Positions 17,639 through 37,418 of a stretch of 64,000 nt of DNA are shown piece after piece. The position numbers were made by a program, and so were the translations under genes. A model generated the notes under the pieces. That model did not search any database. It saw only the letters and a list, made by a program, of their open reading frames with translations, and was not told where the DNA came from. How positions within the stretch are numbered: position 1 is the stretch's first letter; every line of letters starts with the position of its first letter. This DNA comes from an uncultured Gemmatimonadales bacterium (GTDB lineage Bacteria; Gemmatimonadota; Gemmatimonadetes; Gemmatimonadales; GWC2-71-9): the NCBI GenBank assembly GCA_963798915.1, contig CAWCVB010000014.1, positions 64,001-128,000 of the forward strand, given 5' to 3'.

Positions 17639-17678
17639 CAGGCACTCTTCAGCCGTCTCCCTCGCCGACATTCCGTTC

Positions 17679-21297: not shown

Positions 21298-22415
21298 ATG
21301 CGGCGCGCGACGGCGCTCGGCGAGCTCGCCCGGTTGTTCCTGCGGCTGGGGGGAACGGCCTTCGGCGGGCCCGGGGCCCACATCGCGATGATGGAAGACG
21401 AAGTCGTCCGGCGTCGCAGCTGGCTCACGCACGACGAGTTCATTGATTATCTCGGCGTCACCAGCCTGATTCCCGGGCCCAATTCCACCGAAATGGCCAT
21501 GCATGTCGGGTGGGTTCCGCGGGCCTCCCCGGGCTTTTGGTCGCCGGCCTGTCATTCATCCTGCCTGCGGCAGGCATGGTAGCTGCGATGGCCTGGGCTT
21601 ACGTGCGCTTCGGCGTCGTTGCCGCGGCGGCTCCGCTGCTATACGGGATCAAGCCGGTGGTCATTGCGGTGGTGGTACGGGCGCTCTGGCGATTGGCGGG
21701 CAGGGCGGTCAAGTCGACTTGGTTGGGCCTTCTGGGCCTGGGCGCCGGCGGCGCCAGTCTGTTCGGACTCAATGAGCTGGCCATTCTGGCCGGGGCCGCC
21801 GTGATCGCGATGGCCGCACAGTCGCGACCTGACCGAAGGATGCTGGCATTGCTTCCCATTCCTCTGGGATTGGCGGGCGTTGGGACACCGTTCGGGCTGG
21901 GCAAGCTCTTTTTGATTTTTCTGAAAATCGGCGCCGTCCTCTTTGGCAGTGGCTATGTGTTGCTGGCGTTCCTGCGCGCGGACTTGGTCGACCGTCTCCA
22001 TTGGATCACGAACCAGCAGCTGCTGGATGCAGTGGCCGTCGGGCAGGTGACTCCTGGGCCCCTGTTCACCACCGCCACCTTCATCGGCTACACCCTGGGT
22101 GGCTGGGTGGGCGCCGCTGCCGCAACCGTCGGCATTTTCACGCCTGCATTCGCGTATGCCGCCCTGAGCAACCGGGTCGTCCCACTCTTGCGCCGGTCGC
22201 TCGTAGCCGGGGCAGCACTGGACGGGATCAACGTTGCCTCCCTTGCCCTGATGGCGACGGTCACGCTGTATCTGGGTCGCACCGCGCTGGCCGACTGGCC
22301 GAGCATGGTCATCGCCAGTGTGAGTGCGCTCGTGCTGTTTCGCACTCGGCTGAATTCCGCGTGGCTGGTGCTGGGAGGCGCTGCAGCGGGTTACCTGATT
22401 TATGCCGTCCGCTAG
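21298..22415 (+). pseudogene. chrA: Chromate efflux transporter, frameshifted at ~21517
   Basis: AFGGPGAHIAMM, IPGPNSTE in one frame; GIKPVV, FGSGYVL, GQVTPGP in another. Confidence 0.85.
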
Positions 22416-22474
22416 CACGACGTTGCTTCCGCCGCGCATCCATCGTAGGTGCGACAATTACATCGGAGCCGGAC

Positions 22475-23257
22475 ATGACTACTCAGCATCACGCTGTCGT
22501 CCGCCGGGCCTTTGCCGCGCAAGCCGAGAACTGGGGATTCCTCTGGCAGGCAGAGACCGACCCGCTCCTCGCGTGGGTGGCCGAGACCCTCGGCGCTGAC
22601 CTTGGCGAAGCGATGCTGGATGTCGCGGCCGGTACCGGATTACTGGGGCGGTTGCTCGCGTCCCGGATGCAGCGCGTCACGGCGCTGGACGTCAGCCCGG
22701 CCATGCTGCGAGAAGGCCGGCGTCAGGCCGCACGATGCGGCATCACGAACATCACGTTTAGATCAGGTGCTGCGGAAGCTATTCCGTATCGGGATGGCTG
22801 TTTCGACCTGGTGACCTGTCGGTTCGCCTTTCATCACGTCGTACGTCCCCAGGCATGCCTGCGCGAAATGCTGCGTGTGTGCAGGCTTGGCGGACGGCTG
22901 GTCCTCATCGACATGCTTGCCCCCGAAGATCCGGTCCTGGCGCATCGCTACAATTCCATGGAGCGGCTGCGTGATGCCTCGCACCTGCAGGCGCTGACTC
23001 CGCGTGAATGGAGGCAGCTGATCGACGAGGCAGGGCTGATACGGATCAGTGCGGAAGTGGCCGACGCAACGGTTGACCTAGAATCCTGGCTTGACTTCGG
23101 GCGTGCCGGCCTCGCTCAGAGGGGAAAAATCCGATCCGCCATTGAACGAGAGCTGGCGAGCGGGGACGCCACCGGACTTCGGCCGATGAGGGGGGAGGCG
23201 GGCCGCTTGGTCTTTCGTCAGTCTCACATTGCGTCGATTTGCCGGAAGGCGGAATAG
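22475..23257 (+). CDS. Class I SAM-dependent methyltransferase
   Basis: LDVAAGTG, FDLVTCRFAFHH, RDASH. Confidence 0.88.
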   Translation: MTTQHHAVVRRAFAAQAENWGFLWQAETDPLLAWVAETLGADLGEAMLDVAAGTGLLGRLLASRMQRVTALDVSPAMLREGRRQAARCGITNITFRSGAAEAIPYRDGCFDLVTCRFAFHHVVRPQACLREMLRVCRLGGRLVLIDMLAPEDPVLAHRYNSMERLRDASHLQALTPREWRQLIDEAGLIRISAEVADATVDLESWLDFGRAGLAQRGKIRSAIERELASGDATGLRPMRGEAGRLVFRQSHIASICRKAE

Positions 23258-23359
23258 AGCAGACGCACGAAGCGACCCTTGCGACATTCGGGATGTGGAC
23301 GCCACGAATACCTCGGCGTTGTCTGCTGCAAGCAGCGATCCGGCCGTTCCGTGCCGGAG

Positions 23360-23701
23360 CTAGGGCGCGAACATCTCCGCGAGGTGCGCCAGCACGGTCT
23401 CGACGGTGGCGGACCTCAGGGCGCCCAGTCGGCGCACGAGCCGCTCGTGATCCACAGTGCGGAGCTGATCCAGCACCACGTGCCCCTTCTTCTGCTGGAA
23501 CTGACATCCGACCCGGAACGGGTAAGGATGGCCACCGGTGGTCATGGGGGCCACGATCGCGGTCCGAAGGTGATGGTTAAGCTCGTCCGGCGACACGATC
23601 ACGCAGGGGCGGGTCTTCCGAATCTCGCGGCCGAGCGTCGGGTCGAGGGCAACGAGATAGACCTCGCCGCGACTCGGTCCCCGCGCCGTTACCACGTCCA
23701 C
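23360..23701 (-). CDS. mazF: Type II toxin, PemK/MazF family
   Basis: RGEVYLVALDPTLGREIRKTRPCVIVS, DQLRTVD. Confidence 0.93.
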   Translation of the reverse strand: MDVVTARGPSRGEVYLVALDPTLGREIRKTRPCVIVSPDELNHHLRTAIVAPMTTGGHPYPFRVGCQFQQKKGHVVLDQLRTVDHERLVRRLGALRSATVETVLAHLAEMFAP

Positions 23702-23931
23702 TCCGTCTTATCGAACCGGGTGGGTGTCGGGGCGTCGAGCTGATCCTCGTCCCGGTCCCGCGCGGCGGCGGCGTCGGCCCAGGTGGCGCGGGGCGCGGTG
23801 GCCGGCGTGATGATGATGCTTCCGGGTTCGGCAGAGACATCGACTTCCTCGGGGAGGCCGGCCTGCTCGAGGAGCAGCTTGGGGATCCGGACGCCCTGGG
23901 AGTTCCCGATCCGGACGATGCGGGTCTTCAT
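23689..23931 (-). CDS. mazE: Type II antitoxin, AbrB/MazE family
   Basis: RIGNSQGVRIPK; overlaps toxin start; GGAGG SD. Confidence 0.93.
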   Translation of the reverse strand: MKTRIVRIGNSQGVRIPKLLLEQAGLPEEVDVSAEPGSIIITPATAPRATWADAAAARDRDEDQLDAPTPTRFDKTEWTW

Positions 23932-23945
23932 CGAACCTCCTTGAC

Positions 23946-23966
23946 TGTAGCTACAATGTAACTACG
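23946..23966. promoter_or_regulatory. Probable TA autoregulatory operator (TGTAGCTACA + TGTAACTACG)
   Basis: Perfect and imperfect 10-bp palindromes immediately upstream of the antitoxin SD. Confidence 0.65.
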
Positions 23967-24310
23967 TCTTGGCCTGCCCGCAACCGAGCCGCCGAGAACG
24001 GCCTGATGCCGCTCGCACCAGCTACAAGCATTCTGGCCAGCATCAGCGAGCCGGAGGCGGACACGGCGCTCTGGAGATTGAACGGGCCACCGATGACGGC
24101 GATGATGTGCCAGGCGCTCACGTTCGACCCCTCTCCAGTCACCAGCCCTGCGGCAACGAGGGCAAAGGGAATGAGAGTCAGCAGCACCCCGCCTATCGCT
24201 CCTCACGCATCGAACCGGGCCAGCGAGAGTTCGCTGAAGCGCTGCCGGCGCCCATCCATGCTGAGCACAATCGAGAAAAACGCACCCGCGAAGAAGCCGG
24301 CGGACCACTG
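23951..24310 (-). pseudogene. Membrane-protein gene remnant with in-frame TGA
   Basis: GFFAGAFFSIVLSMDGRRQRFSELSLARFDA*GAIGGVLLTLIPF; TGA at 24203-24205; no visible 5' end. Confidence 0.5.
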
Positions 24311-24341
24311 TGCAGTCCGCCGGCTCCCTCAACCCCCAGCG

Positions 24342-25346
24342 TCAGAGCGTTTCGAGAAATGCAATCAGCGCTTCCCGCTCAGCCTCGGTGAGGTGCAGCG
24401 GCGCAATGCCAAGCCGCTGTGCGGCCGGTGAGTTGCTGAACCGCTGGCTGTTGTAGAAGTCGACCACCGCCCGCAGAGTGGCCAGGCTGTTGTCATGGAA
24501 GAAGGGTGGACTCTTGGCCACACCGCGCAGCTGGGGTGTGTTGAATGCGGCGCCCCCCTGCGCGCAATCCGGCAAGGAGGGCTCGATCCGGCAGCGGCCC
24601 GGATCGTCAGCCGGTTCGTCCGGCCGCCGTGCCACGATGCCGTGGAACTGGTTGTCGGTCAAGAGCGGCGGCACATGGCAGCTGGTGCATGATGCTTTCC
24701 CGAAAAACAACTTGCGTCCCTCGCGTGCCCTGGCTGACAGGAGATCGAGGCCCACGCCCCCCGTTGCTGGCTCGGACATCGCCTCTTCGAACGCAACGAT
24801 GGCGTCCAACTCCTCCGGAGTGGGTACCCGCTCGCCGGGCCGGTCCGCCGCGCCGTCCAGCAGGTGCAACAGCGCCGCCTCGGCCGCCTGCTCCTGGAGC
24901 GTGGCCGCCCGCCCGTCGGAGGTAAACGGGGCGGTGCGGCGAACATTGCGGATGGTGGGAATACCGCGGAAGACCGTCATCTGCGGGCTGAACAGGGAGG
25001 CGCCGCCCAGTGGATAGCGGATCATGCCGCGCGCGGCCATCTGGGGATCGACGTCCATGGCCCCCGCAAAGAAGGGGTCGTCCGGCGAAAGCCGGGCGAT
25101 GTCCGCTGGCGTGAGGACGAGCGTCGGGGCGGGATGGCAGGTGCCGCAGGTGCGGCCATTGCCGCCGAAGGTCTCGTTGAAGAAGAGCTGGCGACCGCGC
25201 TCGACGAGAGCGGGGTGACCGCTCGCCGCCGAGAACGTTGCCGCGGATACGTCGGTCGGAGCAGGGCCGTCGCACGCGAATGAGCACACCGCGGCCATCA
25301 CGACTGCCAACCGTACGCCCTGCTCGCGACCGCACAACCTGAACAT
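24342..25346 (-). CDS. Di-heme cytochrome c, CcP/MauG superfamily (probable lipoprotein)
   Basis: Two CxxCH (CGTCH, CTSCH); DGRAATLQEQ, TDNQFH, FNTPQLR; lipobox-like SFAC. Confidence 0.85.
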   Translation of the reverse strand: MFRLCGREQGVRLAVVMAAVCSFACDGPAPTDVSAATFSAASGHPALVERGRQLFFNETFGGNGRTCGTCHPAPTLVLTPADIARLSPDDPFFAGAMDVDPQMAARGMIRYPLGGASLFSPQMTVFRGIPTIRNVRRTAPFTSDGRAATLQEQAAEAALLHLLDGAADRPGERVPTPEELDAIVAFEEAMSEPATGGVGLDLLSARAREGRKLFFGKASCTSCHVPPLLTDNQFHGIVARRPDEPADDPGRCRIEPSLPDCAQGGAAFNTPQLRGVAKSPPFFHDNSLATLRAVVDFYNSQRFSNSPAAQRLGIAPLHLTEAEREALIAFLETL

Positions 25347-25350
25347 GGGG

Positions 25351-26010
25351 CTACTCCGCGCGTCCGGGAGCGCCCGGCGCCGAGAACATTGAGAGGGCCG
25401 CATTGGCGCACCCGACCATCGGCAGGTTGCAGAAGGTGGCGAAGGTGCCCGTCTGCAGCGCCAGGTTGGCCGGATCGGTCTCGGCCGGGCCATGGTTCCG
25501 GACCACCACATGGACTTCCGCCCTGAATGGATTGTCCACGCCCGAGGCGTCACCAACCTGGAGGGACTTTCCTTCGATGTCATGACGGAGCAGGTGCGTC
25601 TGATGATAGACGGTGCTGCCGGTGGCCACGAAGCCACCGCCATTCACCAGGCTGCCCTGCGCCTCGCGAACCGCAAGGTCGGAGGGATCGCAGGCGTCAA
25701 CGCATCCCTGAGGATTGTCGAAGATGCCCCACCAGATGCTGTACGCATAGCCCGGGGTCAGGCCGTCCACCGCGAGATCCGCCCAGAGTCCTTCAGCTGT
25801 CCGCGTCAGGGTCACCGTTCCTGAGATGCCTGAGCCGCCCACCGCGCTGAGGGGCAGTTCGGTCTCAATCACCGGCGCGGCAGCGCTGGCGAGCGACACC
25901 GGCCCGGCAAGAGCATTGGCTCCGCTGGGCGCCAGGGAGTCGCTACCAGTACAACCTGCGAGTTGGGTCATCGCCGCCAACAGGGCAAGCGGCAAGAGTT
26001 TGCTGCCCAT
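25351..26010 (-). CDS. Hypothetical lipoprotein
   Basis: MGSKLLPLALLAAMTQLAG-C lipobox; AAGGAG SD; two Cys pairs. Confidence 0.8.
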   Translation of the reverse strand: MGSKLLPLALLAAMTQLAGCTGSDSLAPSGANALAGPVSLASAAAPVIETELPLSAVGGSGISGTVTLTRTAEGLWADLAVDGLTPGYAYSIWWGIFDNPQGCVDACDPSDLAVREAQGSLVNGGGFVATGSTVYHQTHLLRHDIEGKSLQVGDASGVDNPFRAEVHVVVRNHGPAETDPANLALQTGTFATFCNLPMVGCANAALSMFSAPGAPGRAE

Positions 26011-26172
26011 CTTTGCACTCTCCTTGGAAAGGACTTGGAACTGCGTTAGCCGTCGTTGTCCCCTGTTAACGAGCAATGGCCGGTGGCGAGGACAACGGCG
26101 ATGATGGGTGAAATGCGCATGGAGCAGCTCCGGCCTGGGAAGTGGGGCATCGTCGTCCCCCTGCATTCCATT

Positions 26173-26199
26173 ACACCGAACCCGTCAAAGCGGGGCCAC
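26173..26199 (-). promoter_or_regulatory. Putative ECF promoter 1 (GTGGCCCC-N13-CGGTGT)
   Basis: One of three copies with identical boxes and spacing. Confidence 0.75.
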
Positions 26200-26244
26200 C
26201 CCGAAGCCCGGCGAGCTTCCATGCCTGCATCGGCGAGCTGCCGT

Positions 26245-27708
26245 TCAGCTCCCAGGCCGCCAAGCCGGGCTCGTGCCGTTGGCGATGATCCGCCCGCGCT
26301 GGCTTCCGTCGGTGGTGACCCACTCGATCGCATTGGCGGACGCGAACGCGATGATCTGTCCGTCCGGCGACCAAGTCGGATGCGCGTACCCGCTCGTCGT
26401 CGCCAGCCGCATCAGGCCCGAACCGTCCGCGCTCATCACCGCGAGTGCACCGGAGTCGCAGTAGCTCCAGGTTAAGGGGCAGGTCACGAGGGCGATCCGC
26501 CGGCCGTCCGGCGACCAGGCCGGCTGCAATTCGTCGAACGTCGGCTGCGGATCGTGGCTTCGGAGAACCGTGGCCTGGGTCCCGTCCGGAGACACCAGCC
26601 AGATGTCGAGCCAGAAGTCGACCAGGATCCAGTCGCTGCTGAAGGCGATGCGAGTGCCGTCGGGCGACCACGCCGGATGCAGGACTGATACGGTGGTGGT
26701 CAGGACGGTGATCGGGGCAGCGCCGTCGTCGTCGGCGCTCACCTTGCAGACGGCGCCCGCGTCGTGTGCCCCGCAGGAGAACGCCACCCACCGGTCGTCG
26801 GGCGACCACGTGGGACTTCTCCCTGCGCTCACCCGGCGAACCGGATTCGCCCCATCCGCGGTCATGACGTAGATCCCCCCTGCCTCACCGCCGCGCGAGA
26901 ACGCAATCCGGCTGCCGTCGCGGGACCACGCCGGCTCGCTATCCGCGGGACCGGCGGACAACTGGACCAGGCCGGTCCCGTCGGCGTTGGCCCGGTAGAT
27001 CTTCCCGTCGCGGCTGAAGGCAATCTCCCCCGCTTGGGGCGGCGGGATGTACTGTGTGCCCGGTTCCTGGATGTCTACCTGCTCCGTGACCGTCGCGGTG
27101 GCCCCGTGGGTGTCGGTGACGGTGAGTGTCACGGTGAATCGGCCGCCCGGCGCATCGTACGTATGGTACGGGCTCGGCGTGGTGCTGATGTGGCCGTCGC
27201 CGAAGTTCCAGGCCCGCGATACAACCGAATCCCCGGCATCTGGATCCGTGCTCTGATCCGTGAACAAGCACGCCAGGACAGTGCAGCTGACCGAAAAGGC
27301 CGCGGCCGGGGGGAGATCGGCCGGGGGGAGATCGGCCGGGGGGAGGCTGTCGGCGCTCACCGCCACCTGCCGGGAAAACGTCACTGCCGCGCCATCGTCG
27401 TCGGTTACGGCTACGGTCACCTTGAAATCCCCGCCCGGCGCGGCGTAGCTGTGTGTTGGGCTCGCGTCGGTGCTGGTTCTGCCGTCGCCGAAGTCCCAGG
27501 CATAGGTGGCGATGGTGCCGTCTTCGTCGGTGCTGACGTTCTCGAAAGCGCACTGGAGCTGCTCGCAGTGCGCCGTGAACGCGGCGACCGGCGGCGCGTT
27601 CGACTGTTCGGTGCCGGAGACCGGCGGCGCGTTCGACGGTTCGGTGCCGCCGCAGGCGGCGGTGGTCGCGACGGCCGTCATCATGGCGAAGGTGCGAATG
27701 CGGTTCAT
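26245..27708 (-). CDS. Lipoprotein with two PKD domains and PD40 (TolB-like) beta-propeller
   Basis: Lipobox TAAC; WDFGDG and WNFGDG; repeated PAWSPDG. Confidence 0.88.
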   Translation of the reverse strand: MNRIRTFAMMTAVATTAACGGTEPSNAPPVSGTEQSNAPPVAAFTAHCEQLQCAFENVSTDEDGTIATYAWDFGDGRTSTDASPTHSYAAPGGDFKVTVAVTDDDGAAVTFSRQVAVSADSLPPADLPPADLPPAAAFSVSCTVLACLFTDQSTDPDAGDSVVSRAWNFGDGHISTTPSPYHTYDAPGGRFTVTLTVTDTHGATATVTEQVDIQEPGTQYIPPPQAGEIAFSRDGKIYRANADGTGLVQLSAGPADSEPAWSRDGSRIAFSRGGEAGGIYVMTADGANPVRRVSAGRSPTWSPDDRWVAFSCGAHDAGAVCKVSADDDGAAPITVLTTTVSVLHPAWSPDGTRIAFSSDWILVDFWLDIWLVSPDGTQATVLRSHDPQPTFDELQPAWSPDGRRIALVTCPLTWSYCDSGALAVMSADGSGLMRLATTSGYAHPTWSPDGQIIAFASANAIEWVTTDGSQRGRIIANGTSPAWRPGS

Positions 27709-27747
27709 GGGTCGAGTCTCCTGATAGTTGCCCGTGCGCGCGGGCCT

Positions 27748-29277
27748 TCAGCGTCGCCAGCTCGGCGATTGCGCGTTGTTGATGAGGGTGACCTGCCGGC
27801 TCCCGTCGAGTGACACGTACTTGACCGACCGCTGGAAGCAGCCATCGCCCGGGGACTCGCAGCCGAAGAACGAGAAGGCGATGCCGCGCCCATCCGGGGA
27901 CCAGGCCAGCGATCCCACATCCTCGCCGATGGTGATGGGACCGGCCGAGGCGAGGTCCTTCAGGAAGGCGCCGTCTGCAGCCATGACCGCGACCCGCACT
28001 TCCGTGTCACCCCGCGCGATGTTTCCGTGGACGAATGCGATCATGCTGCCGTCGGGCGACCAAGCTGGCTGGAAGGCAACCATGCCATTGGTCAGCCGAG
28101 TTGGACCGGCGCCGTCGGCGTTTACCGTGTAGATGTCCTTGAATCCACCACCGAGCCAGCTGACGAATGCGAGCTTGCGACCATCTGGCGACCAGGACGG
28201 TTGCTCACCGGTCGCGAGGCCCATCGTCGCCCCGTACTGCGGGATGATGAACTCGACGTAGCGGTTTCCGTCCGCCCAGCTTGTGTAGGCGATCGCCGAG
28301 CCGTCGGGAGACCACGCCGGCGAGAGGTTCGTCGGTCCCTGCGTGAGCCACGACACGTTCGCCCCGTCGGCGGTCATGACCCCGATCCTCGCGGCCTCGA
28401 CCTCGCCTACGACTGCATCGCTGGAAAAGGCAATCCGGCTGCCATCGGGTGACCACGCCGGCTGACTCTCAAGGCCCGGGTAGCTCAACCGGTTGAATCC
28501 GCTGCCATCCGCGTTGACGACGGCGATGTCGAGGTAGGGGTCAGCCCATGAGATGAACGCGATCTTCCCCAGGAGATCGCCCGGCGGTGCCGCGGCGAAC
28601 GCCCGGAATACCGCCAGGGCCCCGCCCGACACCGCAGCCACTTGCTGGACACCGGCCTCGGCGCCGAGCGTCCACGTCTCGCCGTGGCCCTGCCGGTGAA
28701 TCGGTGAGGCCGGATCGCCATCGACGGTGCCGCCGCCGGCGATCACCGTGAACACGACCGGAACGCCCGCGACGGGATTGCCGAAGGCGTCGACCGCGGC
28801 GGCGACCAGCGGTTGCTCGAGGACCTGGCTGACACCAGCCAGCTGATTGTTGCCGCTCGAGGGCGTGATCTGCGCGACCGGCCCCGGGGCGGCCACCGCG
28901 GTGAAGACCACGTCGGTGTGGCCGCCTGCGCCCGCCGCCAGCGTCTGCGTGCCCGCTATGGGTCCCAGCGTCCAGTTCGCGAGGGTCGCCGATCCATCTT
29001 CGCCGGTCGTCACTGTACCGCCGTCCACGGTGCCGCCGCCGGTGGCCACCTTGAACGTGATGACGACACTGGCCAGCGGCCGGTCGCGCTCATCCGTGGC
29101 GCGCACCGATGGCGCCGGCTGAACCTCGGCGCCAACCGTGCCTGTGAGCGAGGTGGCCGTGACGGCCGTGACGCGGATCGCCGCCTCAGGCTGAGGCTCG
29201 GTGCTGCCATCACAGCCCTCGAGGCAGGCGGCGAGGACGGTAGCGAGGGCGACGGAAACGAGGCGTGACGGACGCAT
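27748..29277 (-). CDS. Lipoprotein with Ig-like domains and PD40 beta-propeller
   Basis: VLAAC/LEGC lipobox candidates; WTLG repeats, DAFGNPV; WSPDG repeats. Confidence 0.85.
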   Translation of the reverse strand: MRPSRLVSVALATVLAACLEGCDGSTEPQPEAAIRVTAVTATSLTGTVGAEVQPAPSVRATDERDRPLASVVITFKVATGGGTVDGGTVTTGEDGSATLANWTLGPIAGTQTLAAGAGGHTDVVFTAVAAPGPVAQITPSSGNNQLAGVSQVLEQPLVAAAVDAFGNPVAGVPVVFTVIAGGGTVDGDPASPIHRQGHGETWTLGAEAGVQQVAAVSGGALAVFRAFAAAPPGDLLGKIAFISWADPYLDIAVVNADGSGFNRLSYPGLESQPAWSPDGSRIAFSSDAVVGEVEAARIGVMTADGANVSWLTQGPTNLSPAWSPDGSAIAYTSWADGNRYVEFIIPQYGATMGLATGEQPSWSPDGRKLAFVSWLGGGFKDIYTVNADGAGPTRLTNGMVAFQPAWSPDGSMIAFVHGNIARGDTEVRVAVMAADGAFLKDLASAGPITIGEDVGSLAWSPDGRGIAFSFFGCESPGDGCFQRSVKYVSLDGSRQVTLINNAQSPSWRR

Positions 29278-29397
29278 GGGCACCGCTCCGGGCTGGAAGG
29301 CATGCGCGGCGCTGATTAGTCTGGAGGCCGCGATCGCGATAGTGCGGGGCTGGACGGTGTGCCTCTTCGGCAGCATCATCGTCCCCTGCATCAGATC

Positions 29398-29424
29398 ACA
29401 CCGAACCCGCCAAAGAGGGGCCAC
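29398..29424 (-). promoter_or_regulatory. Putative ECF promoter 2 (GTGGCCCC-N13-CGGTGT)
   Basis: Repeat copy, 17 nt before the divergent ECF start. Confidence 0.75.
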
Positions 29425-29441
29425 TGAGGAAGGGAGGGACC

Positions 29442-30035
29442 GTGGACGATCGTGTCTCCACCCTGGTCGACGCCGTCGCGGCCGGCGACCGCGGGGCCCT
29501 GGATGCCCTGTTTCCGCTGGTCTACGAGGAGCTGAGCCGGTTGGCGCACCAGCAGCGCCGGCGGTGGGACGGTGACTTCACCCTGACCACCACCGCGCTG
29601 GTCCACGAGGCGTACCTGAAGCTGGCCGGCCAGCGGCAGCTGCCCGCGGGGAGCCGAGCCCACTTTCTCGCCATCGCCGCCCGGGCGATGCGACACATCC
29701 TGTGCAACTACGCGCGTGACCGCCGGCGCCAGAAGCGCGGTGGCGGCCGGCCGCACCTGCAGCTCGAAGAAGCGGATGCCGCGGATCGGGCGTCGATCGA
29801 GCTGTCAGACGATCAGGCGGACCGTCTGGCCGGGCTCGACGAGGTGCTGCGCCGTTTCGAGGGCATCGCTCCGCGGCAGTGCCAGGTGGTCGAGTGCCGC
29901 TTCTTCGGTGGGATGAGCGTCGAGGAAACCGCCGCCGCCCTCGACGTATCTCCCCGCAGCGTCAAGCGGGACTGGGCTTTCGCGCGAGCCTGGCTGCTCC
30001 GGGAATTGCAGCGTCCCGTGACCGGAGAAGATTGA
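29442..30035 (+). CDS. ECF sigma factor, kinase-associated type (TIGR02999/ECF43-like)
   Basis: LVYEELSRLA, TLTTTALVHEAYLKL, AARAMRHIL, QKRGGG, VECRFFGG, VKRDWAFARAWL. Confidence 0.92.
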   Translation: MDDRVSTLVDAVAAGDRGALDALFPLVYEELSRLAHQQRRRWDGDFTLTTTALVHEAYLKLAGQRQLPAGSRAHFLAIAARAMRHILCNYARDRRRQKRGGGRPHLQLEEADAADRASIELSDDQADRLAGLDEVLRRFEGIAPRQCQVVECRFFGGMSVEETAAALDVSPRSVKRDWAFARAWLLRELQRPVTGED

Positions 30036-30056
30036 GGGGACTTGCGTGCTGGCCCG

Positions 30057-31512
30057 TCAGGGGCGCCACGCCGTCGCGAAGACATTCTGAATCAGGGGAA
30101 CGGGCTGGCTGAGCCTGCCGTCTGCCGGGACCCAGAAGCTGTTGTTTCCCCACCCGAAGGCGATTCTGCTGCCATCGGATGACCACGCCGGTGCGTACGT
30201 ACCACCGACCGTCGTCAGCTGCACCAGGTTCGCCCCGGCCGCACTCACGGCGAATATGTCACACGTGTCTTCGTCGTGGCACTTCGTGAACGCGATCCGC
30301 TGACCGTCCGGCGACCAGCTCGGATGCCCCATGAACCGGTCGCTGTTCAGCGTCCTGACCCCCGACCCGTCCGCAGTCATCACCTTGAGGGAATCGAGGC
30401 TTGGACAGCCCGCGACGATCGCGATCTTCGTCCCGTCCGGCGACCACGCAGGTTCGACTTGTCCGCACGCCTCCGCCAGCAGGACCGGAGGCATCGCATC
30501 CCCGGCATTCAACACGTACACCCCACCGGGTCCCGCGACGGCGAGCCGCTCACCATCGGGCGACCAGGACGGCGCGTGGAATCCGGTGGCGCGGAGCGCG
30601 GCATTGGAGCCGTCGGCATTCATGAGCAAGAGATCGATGTCCTGGTCGTCCCAGTTGTAAATTGTCGCTGCGATCCGCTGGCCGTCCGGGGACCATGCCG
30701 CATCCACTGCGCCCTCAATCAACGGGGTCGTCTCGCCATCGACCAGACTGTTGAGCACGCCTGCACGGTCCACGAAGAGGAGATCCCGCCCGCGGCACGG
30801 GTCTCCGCACGCGAACGCCTGGAAGAGGGTGTCCTTCCCGGCGACCGAAGCCTTCACCACCTGGCCGCCCACGCCGCCGAGGGTCCAGACTCCCGAGCTC
30901 GCGACGCCCAGGGAATCCGTCCTCGAACTGTCGCCGAGGATCGCACCATTCCCCACGACGACCGCATACGTCACCGCCTCCCCGGGGACGGGATTTCGAT
31001 ATTTATCGGTCGCCTTCAGCTTCAACGGTGTCGGGAGCGGCGCCCCCGACCGCAGCGGTCTGATTGTCCCCCGCCACGATCGCGACAGTCACTGGTCGTC
31101 CCGGCTGCGCAACGGCGGTGAAGACCACATCGGCAACGCCATCAGCGCGGGCCGTGAGAGTCTGGGGCCCGGGCACGGTGCCGAGTGTCCATGTTCCTGG
31201 TGATGCGACGCCCGCCGTGTCGGTGCGCTGCGACGTGATTTCGATCGAACCGCCGCCCGATACGATGAACCGCACCTCCCGGCCAGGTGCCGGCGCACCG
31301 TCGCGGGTCGTGAGCCGCACCGTCGGGATGGAGTCGGATTTGGCTCCCACGATGCCGCTGAGACTCGTCGCGGAGTGCGCCTCCAGGCTGAGCCCATTTT
31401 CCACCGGCTCCTCAGGCTGCTGGGGCTCGACCGAGTCGCAGCTGACGAGCACCAGCATGATGCCGCAAACCTGCGCCACCGCCCGCCACGTCAGCCGGTC
31501 GTTTCTGCGCAT
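30057..31512 (-). pseudogene. Ig-like + PD40 beta-propeller lipoprotein, split by frameshift at C5 run 31043-31047
   Basis: Lipobox LVSC; removing one base joins the two ORFs (VGAPLPTPLKLKATD); paralogous to 27748..29277. Confidence 0.8.
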
Positions 31513-31611
31513 ACCCCCTCCAAGTGAGTTTCATGAGCGCCCGCCACTGGCACCCTCTTGAGGATTGTCGGCCGCCGCTGTAGCGTCGGACCAGTCCGTT
31601 CACCCCATAAC

Positions 31612-31638
31612 ACACCGAAACCCCTCAACCGGGGCCAC
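31612..31638 (-). promoter_or_regulatory. Putative ECF promoter 3 (GTGGCCCC-N13-CGGTGT)
   Basis: Repeat copy, 2 nt before the divergent kinase ATG. Confidence 0.75.
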
Positions 31639-31640
31639 CG

Positions 31641-34199
31641 ATGGAGCCGACACGGGCGGAGCGAGTAGCGGCCCTGTTCGACCGGGCCCTTGACGTGCCG
31701 CGGCGGGAGCGCACGGCGTTCCTGGAGAGCGTGTGTGGCGACGACGACGAGCTGTGGCAGGAGCTGATCTCGCTGCTGGAGGCGCACGAGTCGGCCGACG
31801 AGTTCTTCGACCGTCTGGCGGAGGATGTGATTGCGCCCGCCACCGCGGCCGTTGTCGCACACGGTCGCTCCGACGTCCCGACGGAGCTTGCGTCGGCCCT
31901 CGAGGGTCGCTATCGCATCGAGCGGGAGCTTGGCGGTGGGTCCTTGAGCCGGGTGTTCCTGGCCCAGGAGCTTGGACTCGAGCGGAAAGTCGTGATCAAG
32001 GTGCTGCCGCCCGAGCTGGCCGCGACGGTGAGCGGCGAACGATTTCGCCGCGAGATCCAGCTGGCCGCCCAGCTGCAGCACCCGCACATCGTGCCACTGC
32101 TCAGCGCCGACGCGGGTGGCCGTCTGCTGTACTACGTCATGCCGTTCGTCGCGGGGGAGTCACTGCGCGAGCGGCTTCGGCGCGACGGCGCGCTCTCGAT
32201 CGCCGATGCGTCAGGCATCTGGCGGGACCTGCTCGATGCGCTGGCGCACGCCCACGCCCGGGGCGTGGTCCATCGCGACGTCAAACCGGGCAACATCCTG
32301 CTGAGCGGCCGCAATGCCCTGATCGCTGATTTCGGCATCGCCCGCGCGATCGAGGCTGCCGGAGAGGCGGACGTCACCGTTCCAGGCCTCGCGATCGGCA
32401 CGCCGGCCTACATGGCCCCCGAGCAGATTGACGGCAGCTCCGCGGTCGATCACCGCGTGGACCTCTACGCCTCGGCCCTGGTCATGTACGAGATGGTCGA
32501 GGGGCGACTGCCTTTCACCGGGGCCTCGCCGCGGGACGTGGCGCTGGCCCGTCTGACCCAGCCACCCCCTCCCATAACCCGGGCGGATTGCCCGCCCGAG
32601 CTCGCGGCCATCGTGCTCCACTGCCTCGCCCGGGATCCCGAAGGCCGTCCCGCGAGCGCCGACGCGGTGCTGGCCGCGCTCGATCAGACGTCCGGGCTGG
32701 CGGGTGCCGTCCCAGGCCGAAGGTCGTGGCGGCGCCTGACCACTGCGGGGCTCGCGGCGGTGTTGCTGGCGGCAACCGCGCTGGGAGCGCGATACCTGGG
32801 GTGGGATCGTAACGATGCCGCTGTCGACAGCAGGCCCGCCCCGTCCCTCGCCGTTCTACCTCTGGCCAATCTCAGCCCCGAAGCCGGCGACGCCGCCCTG
32901 GCCGACGGCATGACCGAGGAGCTGATTGCCGTCCTCAGCCAGGGCCGGACCCTGCGCGTTGTCTCGAGCACGTCGGTGCGCGCCCTCCAGAACCGGCAGC
33001 TCGAGGTGCGCCAGATCGCCGAAAGCCTGCGGGTATCACACGTGCTCGAGGGTGGGCTGCAGAAGGTCGGTTCGAAGCTGCGCATGCAGGTGCGCCTGGT
33101 GGATGCGCGGGACGGTTCCACCCGCTGGTCGGAAACGTACGACCGGGAGATGGGCGACATCTTTGCGATCGAGGATGACATCGCCCGCGCCGTCGCGGGT
33201 GAGCTCGATCTCCGGCTCGGCGGCGGCAGCAAGCCGCGGCCGTCTCATCCTGTCTCCACCTCCAGCGTCGTCGCCTACGAGTGGTATCTCCGCGGACGGG
33301 AGAATGCGCTGGTCCGCACGCACGAGGGCCTGCTCGAGGGCATCGGGTATCTCCAGCGCGCCATCGCCCTCGATTCCGGCTTCGCTGCCGCGCACGCCGC
33401 GCTGGTGTGGCTCTATATCAACCGGGCCGGGAGCATCCCCGGAGACCATCGGACCTGGTACCGTCGCGCGGAGGCCGAGGCACTCAAGGCCATCGCCCTC
33501 GACGACTCGCTGGCCGATGGCTACGCCGCCCTCGGGTGGGCCCGCATCTCCCTGGGACAGCCGGCAGCCGAGGCGGCACTCAACCGCGCAGTCAGCATCG
33601 ATCCTGCGGCGCACCGGGCGTTCGAGGGACTGGCGCGCTTCTACATGCTCATGCGCCGTCCGGCCGAGCAGCTGGCCGCGGCCCGGCGTGGACTGGCGCT
33701 CGACCCCTTCTCGACCGCGGCCATTCGCGAGATGGCGCTCGCGCTCAGCACCAACGGCCGCTGTGACGAAGCACTGGCGCTGCTCCGGCCGCTCAAGGAC
33801 CTGCACCCGCCCGCCGCCGTCGCCGGCGTCATCCGCGGGCAATGCTACGCCACGAAGCAGATGTGGCCGGAGGCGATCGCCGAGCTGCGCTGGGCCATGC
33901 GGACAGCCGATGCCCGGACCGCCCCCGGCCTCCTGGGCTACGTGCTCGCGCGGAGCGGCCGCCGTACTGAGGCGCAGGAGATGCTGTCGGACATGCTGGC
34001 AGGGCGTACGCAAAGTCACGGCGCCTTCGGCATCGCGCTCGTCTACGCCGGACTCCGGGACTACGACCGGGCGTTCGTCTGGCTCAGGAAGGCGGCGGCG
34101 GAAGGGTCGATCCGGGTCTACATCATGGATCCGCTCTTCCAGGATCTGCAGCGTGATCCGCGTTTCGAGGGAGTGGTAATGGCGGGCGGCGCTTCCTGA
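31641..34199 (+). CDS. Hanks-type Ser/Thr protein kinase with TM helix, TolB-N-like domain and TPRs
   Basis: GGGSLSRV, VIKV, HRDVKPGN, DFG, GTPAYMAPE; TM; SLAVLPLANLS; TPR-like helices. Confidence 0.93.
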   Translation: MEPTRAERVAALFDRALDVPRRERTAFLESVCGDDDELWQELISLLEAHESADEFFDRLAEDVIAPATAAVVAHGRSDVPTELASALEGRYRIERELGGGSLSRVFLAQELGLERKVVIKVLPPELAATVSGERFRREIQLAAQLQHPHIVPLLSADAGGRLLYYVMPFVAGESLRERLRRDGALSIADASGIWRDLLDALAHAHARGVVHRDVKPGNILLSGRNALIADFGIARAIEAAGEADVTVPGLAIGTPAYMAPEQIDGSSAVDHRVDLYASALVMYEMVEGRLPFTGASPRDVALARLTQPPPPITRADCPPELAAIVLHCLARDPEGRPASADAVLAALDQTSGLAGAVPGRRSWRRLTTAGLAAVLLAATALGARYLGWDRNDAAVDSRPAPSLAVLPLANLSPEAGDAALADGMTEELIAVLSQGRTLRVVSSTSVRALQNRQLEVRQIAESLRVSHVLEGGLQKVGSKLRMQVRLVDARDGSTRWSETYDREMGDIFAIEDDIARAVAGELDLRLGGGSKPRPSHPVSTSSVVAYEWYLRGRENALVRTHEGLLEGIGYLQRAIALDSGFAAAHAALVWLYINRAGSIPGDHRTWYRRAEAEALKAIALDDSLADGYAALGWARISLGQPAAEAALNRAVSIDPAAHRAFEGLARFYMLMRRPAEQLAAARRGLALDPFSTAAIREMALALSTNGRCDEALALLRPLKDLHPPAAVAGVIRGQCYATKQMWPEAIAELRWAMRTADARTAPGLLGYVLARSGRRTEAQEMLSDMLAGRTQSHGAFGIALVYAGLRDYDRAFVWLRKAAAEGSIRVYIMDPLFQDLQRDPRFEGVVMAGGAS

Positions 34200-34211
34200 A
34201 AGACGGAGGAG

Positions 34212-37200
34212 TCAGAACCGGAACCGCGCCGCCACCTGCAGCTGGAACGCCGACTCGGCCGTGAGCGTCTCCCACGGCGTGAAGCCGGGATCGAAGCGGA
34301 AGACCGGTTGCGCATTGCCCGCGGCATCGGTGCTCTCGCCGACCTGCTCCAGGATGCGAGGCCGCGCCAGGCGATAGCGGCCCCATCCGTCGCTCAGCAG
34401 GTTGAGCAGGTTGAAGGCATCCAGCTCCAGCTCGAGCACCTGCCGGCCGACCGGAATGCCCTGCCTGACGGAGGCGATGGTCGTGTGGGTCCACGGCTCG
34501 CGGCAGCTGTTGCGCGCCAGGATCCGTCCGCGCTGGCGGCGCAGGCAGGGCGTGGCGTCGATGAACTGGTCAAATGCAGCGGCCTGCTGGGCGGCGCTGA
34601 CCGTTTCGGGTGTGCCCGAGGCGTCCCGCGTGAAGGGCTGGAATCGAATTTCGTTGGTGTCGAGCGTGGCCTGCGGCACGTAGATCGGATCGTTGGCATT
34701 GGAGCCGTCCGCGTTCAGGTCGCCCCGCCGGCCAGCGCCGGTCGCGAGGTAGGTGAAGGGGCTCCCCGACTCTCCCACGTAGTAGAAGGCGAACTGGGTA
34801 GGCCAGCGCGTTCGCTGCACGGTCCAGGTGAGCGCCGCGACGATGCGATGCGGCAGATCATTGAGCGAGATGCCGAGGGTCGAATCGTCGTGCCGCCCGG
34901 AGACGGCTCGTGCGTCGGCCCACATCGCGATTCCCGTTGAATTCACCCGGCTGGGCGACTGCACGTCACGAGTCCGCGACCAGGTGTACGACAGACTGGC
35001 GCCGAGCCCATCGGCAAGGTCACGCTCGATCCTGCCCGCCAGCTGATACGAGTAGTTCCTCGACGTATTCCGGAGCTCGATGACCTCCGAGTAGTTCGAG
35101 CGCAGCGCGGGCGTCGCGATGCCGAGCGGATCGATCGTACCGTAGAGCACACGGCCGAAGCGATCCACCGACTGGGGGCCCTGGAGATTGAGGTTCACCC
35201 ACATGAAATCAGAGAGGTACCGGTTCACCAGCAGGTCCGCGCTCGCCAGCAGGCTGCCGGGAAGCTCCCGCTCGTATCCGAGCGACGTGCGGAGCGTCCG
35301 CGCCATCCGGAGGCCGGGATCGAGCAGGTCGACGTCGCCGAAGGGGCGCGCTGACAGCGGGTCACCCGTGGCGCACTGCTCGGGCGCCGCCTCGTAATTC
35401 GGCACGAAGGCCGGCGGCAGGCCCGCGTCGGTCGGGCGAAGGCCGCAGGACAGGACGCCGATTCCTTCGCCGTGATTCGAAAGGGCGGGCACGTACCAGG
35501 CGAGCGGGGGCCGCCCCGTGAAGATCCCGATGCCGCCGCGGACACGCTCGCGCCGCGCCGCCGAACCGTCCCAGGTGAATCCGAGCCGCGGGGAGAGCTC
35601 CATCCGCCGGCGCGGCATCTGATCGGTACGCCGGCCGAAGATGGAGTCAATCGAGGGGTTATATGGTGCGTGCCCCTCGACCGCGAGCAGCTCGGCGCGA
35701 AGGCCGGTCGTGAGCGCGAGCCGCTCGCCCAGACGCCACTCGTCGCCCAGGTAGGCGGTGTACTGGCCGCCTCGAAGCGGCCGGCTCTCGCTGCCGAAGT
35801 CCTTGCGCAGCTCGAATCGGACGGGCGTACCGGCCTCGAGCGCATCCAGACTGGCGAAGGTCCATGTGCCGTAGCCATTGAGGACGCCGCCGCGCAGGAC
35901 CCGAAACCGCTCCATCTGCACGCCGGCCACGAGCGCATGGTTCCCCGCCCACGGAAGACTGAGCTCGTCCCTCACGGTGAAGGAGCGTCCCCTGCCGAAG
36001 GGCCCCTGCGCCTGCTGCGCGCTGCCGGCGACGGCCACCACGTCGCCTCCCTCAGTTCCGGGGAGCGCGACCCGCACGAGCGGCTGCCGAACGTCCGGCA
36101 CCTGATTGGTGTGATCCCAGCTCAGTGAGGCGAGCAGCTCGTTGTGACCGCCCCGCTCCCGCCGGAGGTCGGTATGCACCTGTACTGCGGCAACATCGAC
36201 GCCGAGGTCAGTCGTGAACCGGTAGCTCGACAAAGCGAACGTATCCGTTGCGGCGCGCGAAAACTTCTGGCTGCGAGAGTGGGCGGAGGTGACGAACGCC
36301 GTGACTCGGCTGTTCCACGTCGGGAGCCAGGCATCCACGCGGCCAAAGAGATTGACGAGCGGCGTTCCGTTCTCCAGGTACGCGGCCGACCCCGGGGTCA
36401 ATCCGTACCGGTCCTGCAGGATGCTCTGCAGTCTCGCCACATCGGCATCACTCACCGGGACGGCTGGCCGCAGTCCCGCTGGCTGGCCCACATAAGATCC
36501 GGCGGCCGGCTCCGAGAGACGCTGGAACTCGGACGCAACGAAGAGTTGCACGCGATCCCTCACGATGGGGCCGCCGAGCGAAAAGCCCGCCTGGAGCCGG
36601 TCGTAGGGACTCGGGGCTGCGTCGATGCCGTCGCGTGTCAGCTGGTCGTTGCGCCAGTAGGCGAAGGCGGAACCGCGCAGGTCATTGGTGCCTGACTGGG
36701 TGACCGTATTGACCAGGGCGCCCGCGAAGCTTCCGTAGCGCACGTCGTACGGCGCCACGAGCACCTGATACTCCTTCACCGCATCGAGCGGAATCGACTT
36801 CCCGACGTTCGACGCCGCGGAGACACCCCCGTTCACGAACCGCTCACTGGCGCCGTTGATGAGAAAGCTGTTGAACCGGAAATTGGCCCCGCCGCCCGAC
36901 ACACCGGTCCGCCCGCCGCCGACCTTGGTAGACACGTAGGGCGCGAGGGCGACGAAGTCCTGGAAGTTCCGGTTCAGGGTGGGCAGTCGCCGCACCAGGG
37001 CTTCAGGGATCGTGGTGCCCGGACCGCCTCCGAGCGTCGATGCCGTGTCCCGCACCTCGATTGCCGGGAGCTCGACGACAGCCGGCTCGAGCACGAAGGC
37101 GATGCTGAGCGGCTCGCCCAGTGTCAGGTGCAGGGGGGCGCTCTGCTCGGGCCGAAATCCGATCTGCCGCACCTCGACGACGTACGGACCACCGGGCTCG

Positions 37201-37418
37201 AGCCCCTGGACCAGGAAGCGGCCGCCCACGACCTGGGCATGGACGACGAATCCGGTGGCAGTATTGATTACACGGACGCTTGCGCCGTCGAGGTCCTGAC
37301 CAGCGGGGCCCTGTACACTGCCGCGTATCCCGCCGGTCGTCAGTCCCTGTGCCGACGCGGATGATACGAGAGGAATGAACGAGAGCAGGAACAGCGCGGC
37401 CATCGCCGAGAATCTCAT
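34212..37418 (-). CDS. TonB-dependent receptor (Oar-like, carboxypeptidase-regulatory-like N-domain)
   Basis: Signal peptide; LPTLNRNF, IPLDAVKEYQV, YDVRYG, SGTN, SPRLGF; C-terminal RFRF. Confidence 0.9.
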   Translation of the reverse strand: MRFSAMAALFLLSFIPLVSSASAQGLTTGGIRGSVQGPAGQDLDGASVRVINTATGFVVHAQVVGGRFLVQGLEPGGPYVVEVRQIGFRPEQSAPLHLTLGEPLSIAFVLEPAVVELPAIEVRDTASTLGGGPGTTIPEALVRRLPTLNRNFQDFVALAPYVSTKVGGGRTGVSGGGANFRFNSFLINGASERFVNGGVSAASNVGKSIPLDAVKEYQVLVAPYDVRYGSFAGALVNTVTQSGTNDLRGSAFAYWRNDQLTRDGIDAAPSPYDRLQAGFSLGGPIVRDRVQLFVASEFQRLSEPAAGSYVGQPAGLRPAVPVSDADVARLQSILQDRYGLTPGSAAYLENGTPLVNLFGRVDAWLPTWNSRVTAFVTSAHSRSQKFSRAATDTFALSSYRFTTDLGVDVAAVQVHTDLRRERGGHNELLASLSWDHTNQVPDVRQPLVRVALPGTEGGDVVAVAGSAQQAQGPFGRGRSFTVRDELSLPWAGNHALVAGVQMERFRVLRGGVLNGYGTWTFASLDALEAGTPVRFELRKDFGSESRPLRGGQYTAYLGDEWRLGERLALTTGLRAELLAVEGHAPYNPSIDSIFGRRTDQMPRRRMELSPRLGFTWDGSAARRERVRGGIGIFTGRPPLAWYVPALSNHGEGIGVLSCGLRPTDAGLPPAFVPNYEAAPEQCATGDPLSARPFGDVDLLDPGLRMARTLRTSLGYERELPGSLLASADLLVNRYLSDFMWVNLNLQGPQSVDRFGRVLYGTIDPLGIATPALRSNYSEVIELRNTSRNYSYQLAGRIERDLADGLGASLSYTWSRTRDVQSPSRVNSTGIAMWADARAVSGRHDDSTLGISLNDLPHRIVAALTWTVQRTRWPTQFAFYYVGESGSPFTYLATGAGRRGDLNADGSNANDPIYVPQATLDTNEIRFQPFTRDASGTPETVSAAQQAAAFDQFIDATPCLRRQRGRILARNSCREPWTHTTIASVRQGIPVGRQVLELELDAFNLLNLLSDGWGRYRLARPRILEQVGESTDAAGNAQPVFRFDPGFTPWETLTAESAFQLQVAARFRF

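Follow-up and report, generated by a model that had tools for sequence, protein, structure and literature searches.

The window analysed here is a 64,000-nucleotide stretch of DNA from an uncultured Gemmatimonadales bacterium of soil (G000:C14:64001-128000), whose genome assembly comprises 3.3 Mb in 17 contigs, has 67% G+C and is 84.8% complete. Positions 24342-37418 of the window hold eight genes, encoding an extracytoplasmic function (ECF) sigma factor, a membrane-bound Ser/Thr kinase and six envelope proteins, which the original prediction had described as a candidate trans-envelope signalling system. Open reading frames (ORFs) and profile searches located all eight genes where they had been placed, and the gene calls agreed with the proposed layout, in which the two regulators lie on the + strand and are interleaved with the six envelope genes on the − strand. 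The first regulator (29442..30035, +, 197 aa) is a sigma factor of apparent ECF43 type, matching PF07638 and TIGR02999, and the second (31641..34199, +, 852 aa) is a PknS-like Hanks Ser/Thr kinase with a transmembrane segment and tetratricopeptide repeats (TPRs) (Pkinase 9e-46, with TPR matches). Divergent from the ECF gene is PD40a (27748..29277, −, 509 aa), which encodes a lipoprotein with two Big_1-like domains and a PD40 beta-propeller (PD40 5.9e-27), and beyond it lies a gene for a second propeller lipoprotein, in which two PKD domains precede PD40 (26245..27708, −, 487 aa; PKD_4 1.6e-30, PD40 9.5e-27). A third such gene, PD40b (30057..31512, −), with Big_1-like and PD40 domains, is inserted between the ECF and kinase genes and is frameshifted. 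At one end of the cluster are lipoU (25351..26010, −, 219 aa), encoding a lipoprotein of an orphan family with a predicted beta-sandwich fold, and a gene for a di-heme lipoprotein of the CCP/MauG family (24342..25346, −, 334 aa; PF03150, Cytochrom_C, two CXXCH), with which it has been duplicated. At the other end, a gene for a TonB-dependent-receptor-like outer-membrane protein (34212..37418, −, 1068 aa; OMP_b-brl_4, CarboxypepD_reg and a weak Plug) is convergent with the kinase gene, with 12 nt between their stop codons.

The sigma factor matched the Pfam Sigma70_ECF family (PF07638) with 165 bits (1.9e-48) over residues 4-190, and TIGR02999 with 194 bits (cut-off 126); when its sequence was searched against the PDB, no match was obtained at E ≤ 0.001. 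Where canonical ECFs carry the DAED motif it has the sequence TLTTTALVHE, as had been noticed previously. This corresponds to residues 47-56, with T49-T50-T51-A52 in region 2.2. Fifteen ECFs were aligned (five orthologues, seven paralogues from the same genome and three from other genomes), and the T-T pair was present in all except one paralogue, which has T-P. The ECF43 group is defined by the Sigma70_ECF Pfam domain PF07638 instead of separate sigma2 and sigma4 matches, by a kinase at position +1 with one transmembrane helix and extracytoplasmic TPRs, and by Ser or Thr residues replacing DAED, and in the 2021 classification it is confined to Proteobacteria (PMC7826278, Suppl. Text S2). The group was later enlarged to more than 900 members. 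The corresponding site is STTA in EcfP, with QTTA as consensus, and the phosphorylated residue is the second Thr, T51 in EcfK (PMC8999054, PMC13147305). A Pfam scan of the cluster ORFs gave no match to zf-HC2, RskA or FecR, consistent with the earlier observation that no anti-sigma gene is evident.

The kinase starts with an N-terminal extension of ~85 aa, which is followed by the kinase domain, a single hydrophobic helix (~372-394) and a periplasmic sensor made up of an alpha/beta part and TPRs. The HRD, DFG and APE motifs were visible when the protein was aligned to PknB. From residue 4 onwards it aligned to PDB entry 9EED (E 2.2e-29), which is PknS 1-364 (PMC13147305), and when the first 90 residues were searched against the PDB the sole chain below E 0.01 was again 9EED (residues 4-52 against 7-55, E 1.2e-3). 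PknS has an 83-aa extension, the role of which is not established in the published account. Although tblastn detected ~57 kinase-domain loci in the genome, a jackhmmer search of all its six-frame ORFs with the 80-residue extension found only six others, and all six are kinases adjoining one of the other seven strong PF07638 genes. The partner kinase of the seventh, on contig C1, was missed by jackhmmer and aligned from residue 5 by tblastn. Because the extension is confined to kinases beside PF07638 genes and aligns to PknS, it marks sigma-linked kinases and is common to Gemmatimonadota and Xanthomonas; from these alignments, we infer that it is a candidate sigma-docking domain.

A separate feature of the genome is a concentration of Ser/Thr kinase genes outside the window, on contig C2 (~204-314 kb), where ~38 of the ~57 lie within ~110 kb. 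Several of these C2 kinases have C-terminal PD40 propellers, for example those at 255-2996 and 15999-18662 of locus L005.

Six of the seven other PF07638 genes have a kinase gene directly downstream and the seventh has one within 1 kb, giving eight PF07638/kinase pairs in one 3.3-Mb genome. All the sequence-level hallmarks of the proposed ECF43-type pair are present in the window (PF07638, the T-T site and a PknS-like kinase), and we regard it as very probable that the ECF and kinase form a pair of the PknS/EcfK (ECF43) type. Like EcfK/PknS of Xanthomonas citri and EcfP/PknT of Vibrio parahaemolyticus, the pair combines a Sigma70_ECF-type sigma factor, with Ser/Thr in place of DAED and Thr at position 51, and a kinase that has an extension of ~83-85 aa (homologous to PknS 7-55), a Hanks domain, one membrane helix and periplasmic TPRs, and in all three cases there is no anti-sigma factor. 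It differs from them in belonging to Gemmatimonadota and in having as its predicted regulon immunoglobulin (Ig)-stalked PD40 lipoproteins, where theirs consist of type VI secretion or polymyxin-resistance genes. A TonB-type receptor is conserved beside the kinase here, a lipoprotein gene is inserted between the sigma factor and kinase genes (in this genome), the candidate promoter motif is unlike the proteobacterial ECF43 prediction, and there are eight pairs per genome.

The periplasmic part of the kinase (residues 386-852) was modelled from 15 sequences, with a predicted local distance difference test (pLDDT) score of 85 and a predicted template modelling score of 0.83. The model consists of an alpha/beta subdomain followed by a TPR array. 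In a Foldseek search designed TPR proteins ranked top, and the most compact matches were four entries for the periplasmic domain of CadC (E 2e-7 to 2e-6, target TM-score 0.62-0.63), with a root mean square deviation of 4.8-5.3 Å and an identity of 13%. The model therefore resembles the two-part periplasmic build of CadC/ToxR-like one-component regulators, in which an alpha/beta and a helical subdomain are joined, and the kinase sensor appears to be a CadC-like alpha/beta plus TPR domain. In contrast to those regulators, the output here is a Hanks kinase and a separate sigma factor, and the helical part is a longer TPR array.

A neighbourhood survey agreed with the expectation that the gene combination is conserved, as the same core was found in eight other Gemmatimonadales genomes (G127, G254, G292, G298, G157, L086, L087 and L088). 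The G298 contig ends inside the cluster, and L086, L087 and L088 are contigs from metagenome-assembled genomes (MAGs). The core consists, in order, of Ig-stalked PD40 lipoprotein genes, the ECF and kinase genes, and the gene for a CarboxypepD_reg TonB-type receptor, which is convergent with the kinase gene in all nine clusters. Orthologues in these clusters are 66-84% (ECF), 62-80% (kinase) and 65-82% (receptor) identical. Wherever upstream DNA was available, one to three PD40 lipoprotein genes were divergent from the ECF gene. The interval between the ECF and kinase genes varies: it is 35 nt in G157, where the kinase gene follows directly, and ~500 nt in G254, it contains PD40b in the window, G127, G292, G298, L086 and L087, and in L088 it contains a PD40 gene and a cupin-like lipoprotein gene. 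Outside the core, the flanks differ among all four genomes in which they could be read, with alaS and recX/recA in G254, an M48 peptidase and NDH-2 in G157, a Big_5 lipoprotein and a CHAT protein in G292, and an unknown lipoprotein ORF in G127. The recurrence of the same core in eight other genomes indicates that the gene arrangement is more than chance.

Alignment of the DNA upstream of five ECF orthologues revealed two invariant blocks amid diverged sequence. They make up a 27-nt motif that reads GTGGCCCC-N11-WYCGGTGT on the strand of the lipoprotein genes and ACACCG(A/G)W-N11-GGGGCCAC on the + strand. In the window a copy is found upstream of each lipoprotein transcription unit. Site 1 (29398..29424, −) lies 120 nt upstream of the PD40a start and ends 17 nt before the + strand ECF start, site 2 (31612..31638, −) lies 99 nt upstream of the PD40b start and ends 2 nt before the + strand kinase ATG, and site 3 (26173..26199, −) lies 162 nt upstream of the lipoU start. 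Together with the copies in the other clusters (two each in G127, G292, L086 and L087, one each in G254 and G298, and three each in G157 and L088) there are 19 sites in nine genomes. A weight matrix of the two blocks was built from 12 sites and used to scan both strands of the whole 3.3-Mb genome. Three sites scored at least 17 bits, all of them within the cluster and each with 27.0 bits; the next best site in the genome scored 16.2. The exact pattern was found nine times in five related whole genomes, always inside the clusters, and a reversed control was not found at all. Five family genomes without an ECF orthologue contained two scattered exact matches, neither of them on a contig bearing the receptor and BTAD-regulator loci described below, and 56 one-mismatch matches compared to 37 for the control. 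This distribution indicates that the motif follows the ECF and kinase, not the receptor or propeller genes. In G157 and L088, whose proteins are 62-68% identical, both blocks were unchanged and the 11-nt spacer and surroundings had diverged.

When the motif is read on the − strand, at least 16 of the 19 sites are 74-185 nt upstream of a lipoprotein start on the opposite strand to the regulators, and the remaining three look onto the end of a contig in L086 and L087 and onto an IS91-like transposase in L088. Like −35 and −10 elements, the two blocks are asymmetric, and they are spaced compatibly with such elements. We therefore read the sites as promoters of the lipoprotein units and, as the cluster contains no further conserved regulator, as promoters used by this ECF, an assignment that seems reasonably likely from their sequence and placement. 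It is also possible to read the motif in the + orientation, in which case it would autoregulate the ECF and kinase, and the lipoprotein genes would be under other control. Twelve of the 19 sites directly precede the start of an ECF or kinase gene, the spacing is near-constant within the genus (16-17 nt to the ECF start and 2 nt to the kinase start), and ECFs usually autoregulate (PMC7826278). However, the ATG that lies 2 nt from the kinase-proximal sites is fixed by homology to PknS, and these sites therefore leave no room for a + strand transcription start. No + strand gene lies downstream of five sites (one at window 26173 and two each in G157 and L088), and the G157 kinase gene, which directly follows the ECF gene, has no site of its own. 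We therefore consider action in the + orientation quite improbable. A role of the motif as an RNA hairpin or terminator was rejected on inspection by eye, as the central CCC/GGG pairing is lost in several copies.

Two of the L088 sites have neighbours of other kinds. One precedes a cupin-like lipoprotein gene (4692-5387, −) and not a PD40 gene, and another faces the IS91-like (Y2 transposase) ORF (576-1574, +).

Taken at sequence level, the locus is probably a sigma-phosphorylation switch of the PknS/EcfK (ECF43) type with a small local regulon of its own. A number of observations weigh against this interpretation. The 5′ leaders that it implies are long (~70-180 nt), and for one G292 site, counted among the 16 above, the next lipoprotein start is over 500 nt away. 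The orientation of the motif is argued from position only, and its placement implies that the ECF does not autoregulate through the motif, which is unusual among ECFs. The motif is also unlike the ECF43 promoter predicted for Proteobacteria, which has GTC at −35 and CAG at −10 (PMC7826278, Suppl. Text S2). A search of public sequencing runs found no RNA run and one soil DNA run, at 0.05 word share. In L087 the orthologous ECF (411-581) seems to be cut, with residues 27-83 alone aligning before the next gene, and in L086 (942-1455) it is frameshifted and spread over two frames; both contigs keep the kinase, the receptor and the motif sites. Together with the frameshifted PD40b of the window, these damaged ECFs may be parts of a decaying system or MAG assembly errors. 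Finally, all nine clusters come from one narrow Gemmatimonadales clade, so that the genomes are not independent.

This narrow origin and the dissimilarity of the motif to the published ECF43 prediction would also suit an explanation in which the ECF/kinase pair is real and the envelope genes are bystanders, the cluster being kept by kinship and the motif being either a vestigial repeat or a site at which some unrelated regulator acts. The other seven PF07638/kinase pairs of the genome, beside which a variety of genes is found (OmpA, DUF4382, Fic and unknown ones), fit such an explanation as well. Nevertheless, the core has been kept while the flanks differ in the four genomes with readable flanks, the motif blocks are unchanged in G157 and L088 though the spacer and surroundings have diverged, the sites are confined to the cluster in six genomes and follow the ECF and not the receptor or PD40 genes, and the cluster has no further regulator gene that is conserved. 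That the envelope genes are mere bystanders thus appears unlikely, and we continue with the switch and its local regulon.

The predicted targets conserved in the core are the PD40 lipoproteins. The genes for the PKD-PD40 protein and PD40a are 39 nt apart and probably form one operon. Orthologues of the PKD-PD40 protein were found in G127, G254 and G292, and an orthologue of PD40a with 58% identity was found in G254; the Big_1 match of PD40a (30 bits) is below the cut-off. PD40b was read as two ORFs (30057-31025 and 31003-31512) owing to one extra G in a run of five G residues near 31043-31047, a frameshift that may be genuine or an assembly error. The gene is intact in G127 (533 aa) and G292 (507 aa), and was not found in G254 or G157. 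As outputs of the ECF, the original prediction had named the PD40 lipoproteins and a MauG-like oxidase. The first part is plausible, as each lipoprotein unit is preceded by the cluster-exclusive motif, whereas the MauG-like enzyme is not a core output, being absent from the eight orthologous clusters. By analogy with polysaccharide utilisation loci (PULs), we would guess that the Ig-stalked propellers are substrate-capturing partners of the receptor.

The di-heme gene and lipoU have a separate history. A 1708-nt stretch of the window (24342-26049) is 95.8% identical to C7:39485-41166 of the same genome, the match having its ends at the di-heme stop codon and 39 nt upstream of the lipoU start. 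The proteins encoded by the C7 copy are 94.5% (lipoU) and 98.5% (di-heme) identical to those of the window, whereas the ECFs beside the two copies are merely 53% identical. The paralogous locus on C7 (6641-12267 of L001, which is G000:C7:28900-48899) contains an ECF gene, a kinase-TPR gene, divergent lipoU and di-heme genes, and then a Peptidase_S41-like gene. Neither lipoU nor the di-heme gene is found in any of the eight orthologous clusters, and G123 shares the arrangement of C7, where lipoU diverges from the ECF and kinase genes, which together indicate that the window copy is the derived one. The ~75 bp upstream of lipoU in the window resemble the PD40a/ECF intergenic region, and contain a motif copy in which 25 of 27 positions agree with site 1. 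To judge from these sequences, this looks like a promoter capture, by which a module of a paralogous sigma factor was recruited into the predicted regulon of the window ECF.

Homologues of lipoU are rare, occurring in 3 of 200 other genomes of the order, and a search of 5.8 billion proteins yielded 41, none of them named beyond 'hypothetical protein'. In four of seven places (contig C7 of this genome, G123, G020 and contig C34 of G157) lipoU is within 3 kb of a PF07638 sigma gene that has a kinase gene downstream or nearby. A two-block word search of five upstream regions of lipoU-type paralogue loci, made for a shared promoter motif, found nothing common to more than two of them. An ECF/kinase pair of G123 (L027, on G123:C116) has genes for a SIR2-TIR protein and an nSTAND1 NTPase directly on its 3′ side (14364-18991), which look like a defence-type pair.

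The lipoU protein has no match in Pfam or NCBIfam. Its invariant residues are W93 (in a W-W pair), C103, C107, C194, C201 and H173, with the Cys residues forming two conserved pairs, and His residues are conserved as well. An AlphaFold2 model (pLDDT 82) is a beta-sandwich, for which Foldseek found no PDB match at E ≤ 0.001. A wide structure search gave Cu,Zn-superoxide dismutase-like proteins as the best PDB matches, with weak to middling Z scores of 7.2-7.7, and MbnP was not among the matches listed. The di-heme protein, which has two CXXCH motifs, matched PF03150 with 34.6-36 bits (cut-off 25.6), and lies outside the MauG (TIGR03791, 84 bits against a cut-off of 444) and MbnH (TIGR04039, 68 against 363) equivalogs. 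At the six lipoU loci examined by tblastn, a di-heme gene was detected at three. In MbnP/MbnH, kynurenine is made from the Trp of a WxW motif by the di-heme partner (PMC11951088). The two systems are alike in that a gene for a small periplasmic protein or lipoprotein with an invariant Trp (in W-W here) is directly upstream of a di-heme gene of the bacterial cytochrome c peroxidase/MauG family, with a TonB-type receptor and a sigma factor nearby. They differ in that lipoU has no detectable sequence similarity to MbnP and a fold with weak likeness to Cu,Zn-superoxide dismutase, in that the di-heme protein is far below the MbnH and MauG cut-offs, and in that lipoU occurs without a detected di-heme gene at half of the loci examined. 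We therefore treat the likeness to MbnP/MbnH as an analogy only.

The last gene of the cluster encodes the TonB-type receptor, which has a signal peptide, a CarboxypepD_reg domain (42 bits), a weak Plug and a large barrel (OMP_b-brl_4, 161 bits). The Plug match scored 18.8 bits (cut-off 23.9), and residues of the Plug region are conserved across 22 homologues. A scan of its 350 N-terminal residues, admitting matches up to E 5, found CarboxypepD_reg, the weak Plug and the barrel, and no STN signalling domain. The receptor gene has no motif site, the best score elsewhere in the window being 15.5. A role as input or partner fits the receptor better than one as output. Homologues at E ≤ 1e-100 are present in 91 of 201 genomes, a tally that counts the unpublished G077 and G238, which support no claim made here. 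Those of 32-39% identity have no ECF, kinase or PD40 match nearby at any of 13 loci. Nine loci with usable flanks had a homologue of 43% identity or more, and five of them adjoin the orthologous kinase. At three more (G230, contig C214 of G107, and G328) the receptor adjoins a membrane regulator with Trans_reg_C, BTAD and TPR domains, and the ninth contig ends at the receptor. The receptors of G230, G107 and G328 are the closest non-orthologous homologues (43-50% identity), and have PD40, RCC1 or Big_2 lipoproteins alongside. Considered on their own, the receptor and BTAD-regulator loci L070-L072 (G107, G328) also encode Big_2 and RCC1 beta-propeller lipoproteins and MacB/FtsX-type permeases, the RCC1 lipoproteins representing a second kind of propeller in the same type of neighbourhood.

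The periplasmic part of the G230 regulator is 41% identical to the kinase sensor over 313 residues, and that of the G328 regulator is 31% identical over 440 residues; no match to the kinase sensor was seen in the G107 regulator. The likeness of the kinase to CadC/ToxR-like regulators thus extends to homologous sensors, which in G230 and G328 are carried by Trans_reg_C plus BTAD proteins beside homologues of the same receptor. A maximum-likelihood tree of 15 sensor domains placed the G230 sensor as sister to the nine kinase sensors, with a support of 98/96, and the four paralogous kinase sensors included outside this group. These relationships suggest that the receptor is passed on together with the sensor, while the cytoplasmic transducer is exchanged, and are the strongest, if thin, sign of a functional link between the two. 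As the receptor gene has no motif and its closest homologues adjoin ToxR/CadC-like regulators with a homologous sensor, the receptor is more likely an input than an output, and may be the input of this system, although on sequence grounds we hold that view tentatively. It is opposed by the fact that the receptor has no FecA-type signalling domain, and by CarboxypepD_reg being common to 21 receptor homologues, 13 of which have no regulator nearby. In addition, the link in the sensor tree depends on a single row with a long branch, and the placement of the G328 sensor was not resolved.

We propose the following mechanism. Judging from characterised homologues, the ECF, lacking the acidic DAED patch, is probably unable to bind core RNA polymerase before Thr50/Thr51 has been phosphorylated by the membrane kinase. 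The kinase would recognise or dock on the sigma factor through its N-terminal extension, and would itself be controlled by its periplasmic CadC-like alpha/beta plus TPR domain. The active holoenzyme would then transcribe the opposite-strand lipoprotein genes from the three observed sites, acting as promoters, in three units: PD40a with the PKD-PD40 gene, PD40b, and, in this genome, the recently acquired lipoU and di-heme pair. The convergent receptor would stand outside the regulon, and would most likely be the partner that passes the signal to the periplasmic sensor, in the form of an imported ligand or of its own occupancy. Taken together, the parts would act like a polymer- or nutrient-uptake locus under kinase-based trans-envelope control. 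X. citri and V. parahaemolyticus are the species in which activation of a sigma factor by phosphorylation has been characterised, and there is a report of it for Hyphomonas neptunium; in these accounts the signal and the sensing mechanism are not established. A full-text literature search, followed at the level of titles and abstract openings, brought up no TonB-type receptor tied to an ECF43/kinase pair.

FecA/FecR/FecI and the Bacteroides PULs that have a SusC-like receptor, an anti-sigma factor and an ECF are known systems that group the genes for a TonB-type receptor, for an ECF and for an inner-membrane protein whose sensor is periplasmic. The present locus shares this composition, and surface or periplasmic lipoproteins are likewise the likely regulated partners. 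It differs from FecA/FecR/FecI in that the receptor has no STN domain, the cluster has no anti-sigma factor resembling FecR and the sigma factor is of the PF07638 type, not FecI. The signal here would pass by a phosphorylation that activates the sigma factor and not by anti-sigma release, and the contact between receptor and sensor is putative. In its fullest form, our proposal would be a hitherto undescribed kind of trans-envelope signalling, in which the receptor reports to the CadC-like domain of a Hanks kinase instead of to FecR and the phosphorylated ECF drives the propeller lipoproteins as surface partners of the receptor, yielding a PUL-like uptake system in Gemmatimonadota. Receptor, sensor and propellers would be a conserved envelope module, which in other genera is connected to a ToxR-like DNA-binding domain, and the cytoplasmic transducer would be interchangeable. 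We regard this as a speculative and somewhat doubtful extension.

A different arrangement of the same parts would make the PD40 lipoproteins co-sensors, instead of or besides being outputs. They would bind a ligand from the envelope or from outside and present it to the TPRs of the kinase, the receptor would be concerned with import only, and the kinase would sense a periplasmic product. The absence of a dedicated signalling domain from the receptor suits such an arrangement, as does the fact that many kinases of this genome carry PD40 propellers as their own C-terminal sensor domain. The evidence does not separate it from the mechanism proposed above, with which it is partly compatible, since motif-driven expression of the lipoproteins and sensing by them could be combined as positive feedback. 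We think a co-sensor role unlikely, and retain the receptor as the putative source of the signal.

Elsewhere in the window, the DNA upstream of the cluster (18492-21245 and 21510-23257) encodes a 917-aa DUF5916/CBM9-like protein, a chromate transporter and a class I methyltransferase, and small ORFs at 23279-23743 and 23928-24332 have no family match. Outside the window, a ThyX (Thy1) gene at 18444-20000 of L004 (G000:C1:220600-240599) is broken by an intein splicing domain.

The ECF/kinase pair itself is of a known kind, and what is new here is the conserved core in eight relatives, the cluster-exclusive motif and the duplication of the di-heme gene and lipoU. A little-studied switch thereby gains a testable set of candidate targets, in the form of a very small local regulon marked by a motif that is exclusive to the cluster in six genomes, and its conserved outer-membrane partner hints at where the signal may originate. 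The lipoU/di-heme pair, apparently placed behind a copy of the local promoter region, would be an example of regulon growth. Ser/Thr kinases are very numerous and almost unstudied in Gemmatimonadota and Acidobacteriota and, if the link to the receptor is true, the system would represent a kinase-based counterpart to FecA-FecR-FecI in these phyla.

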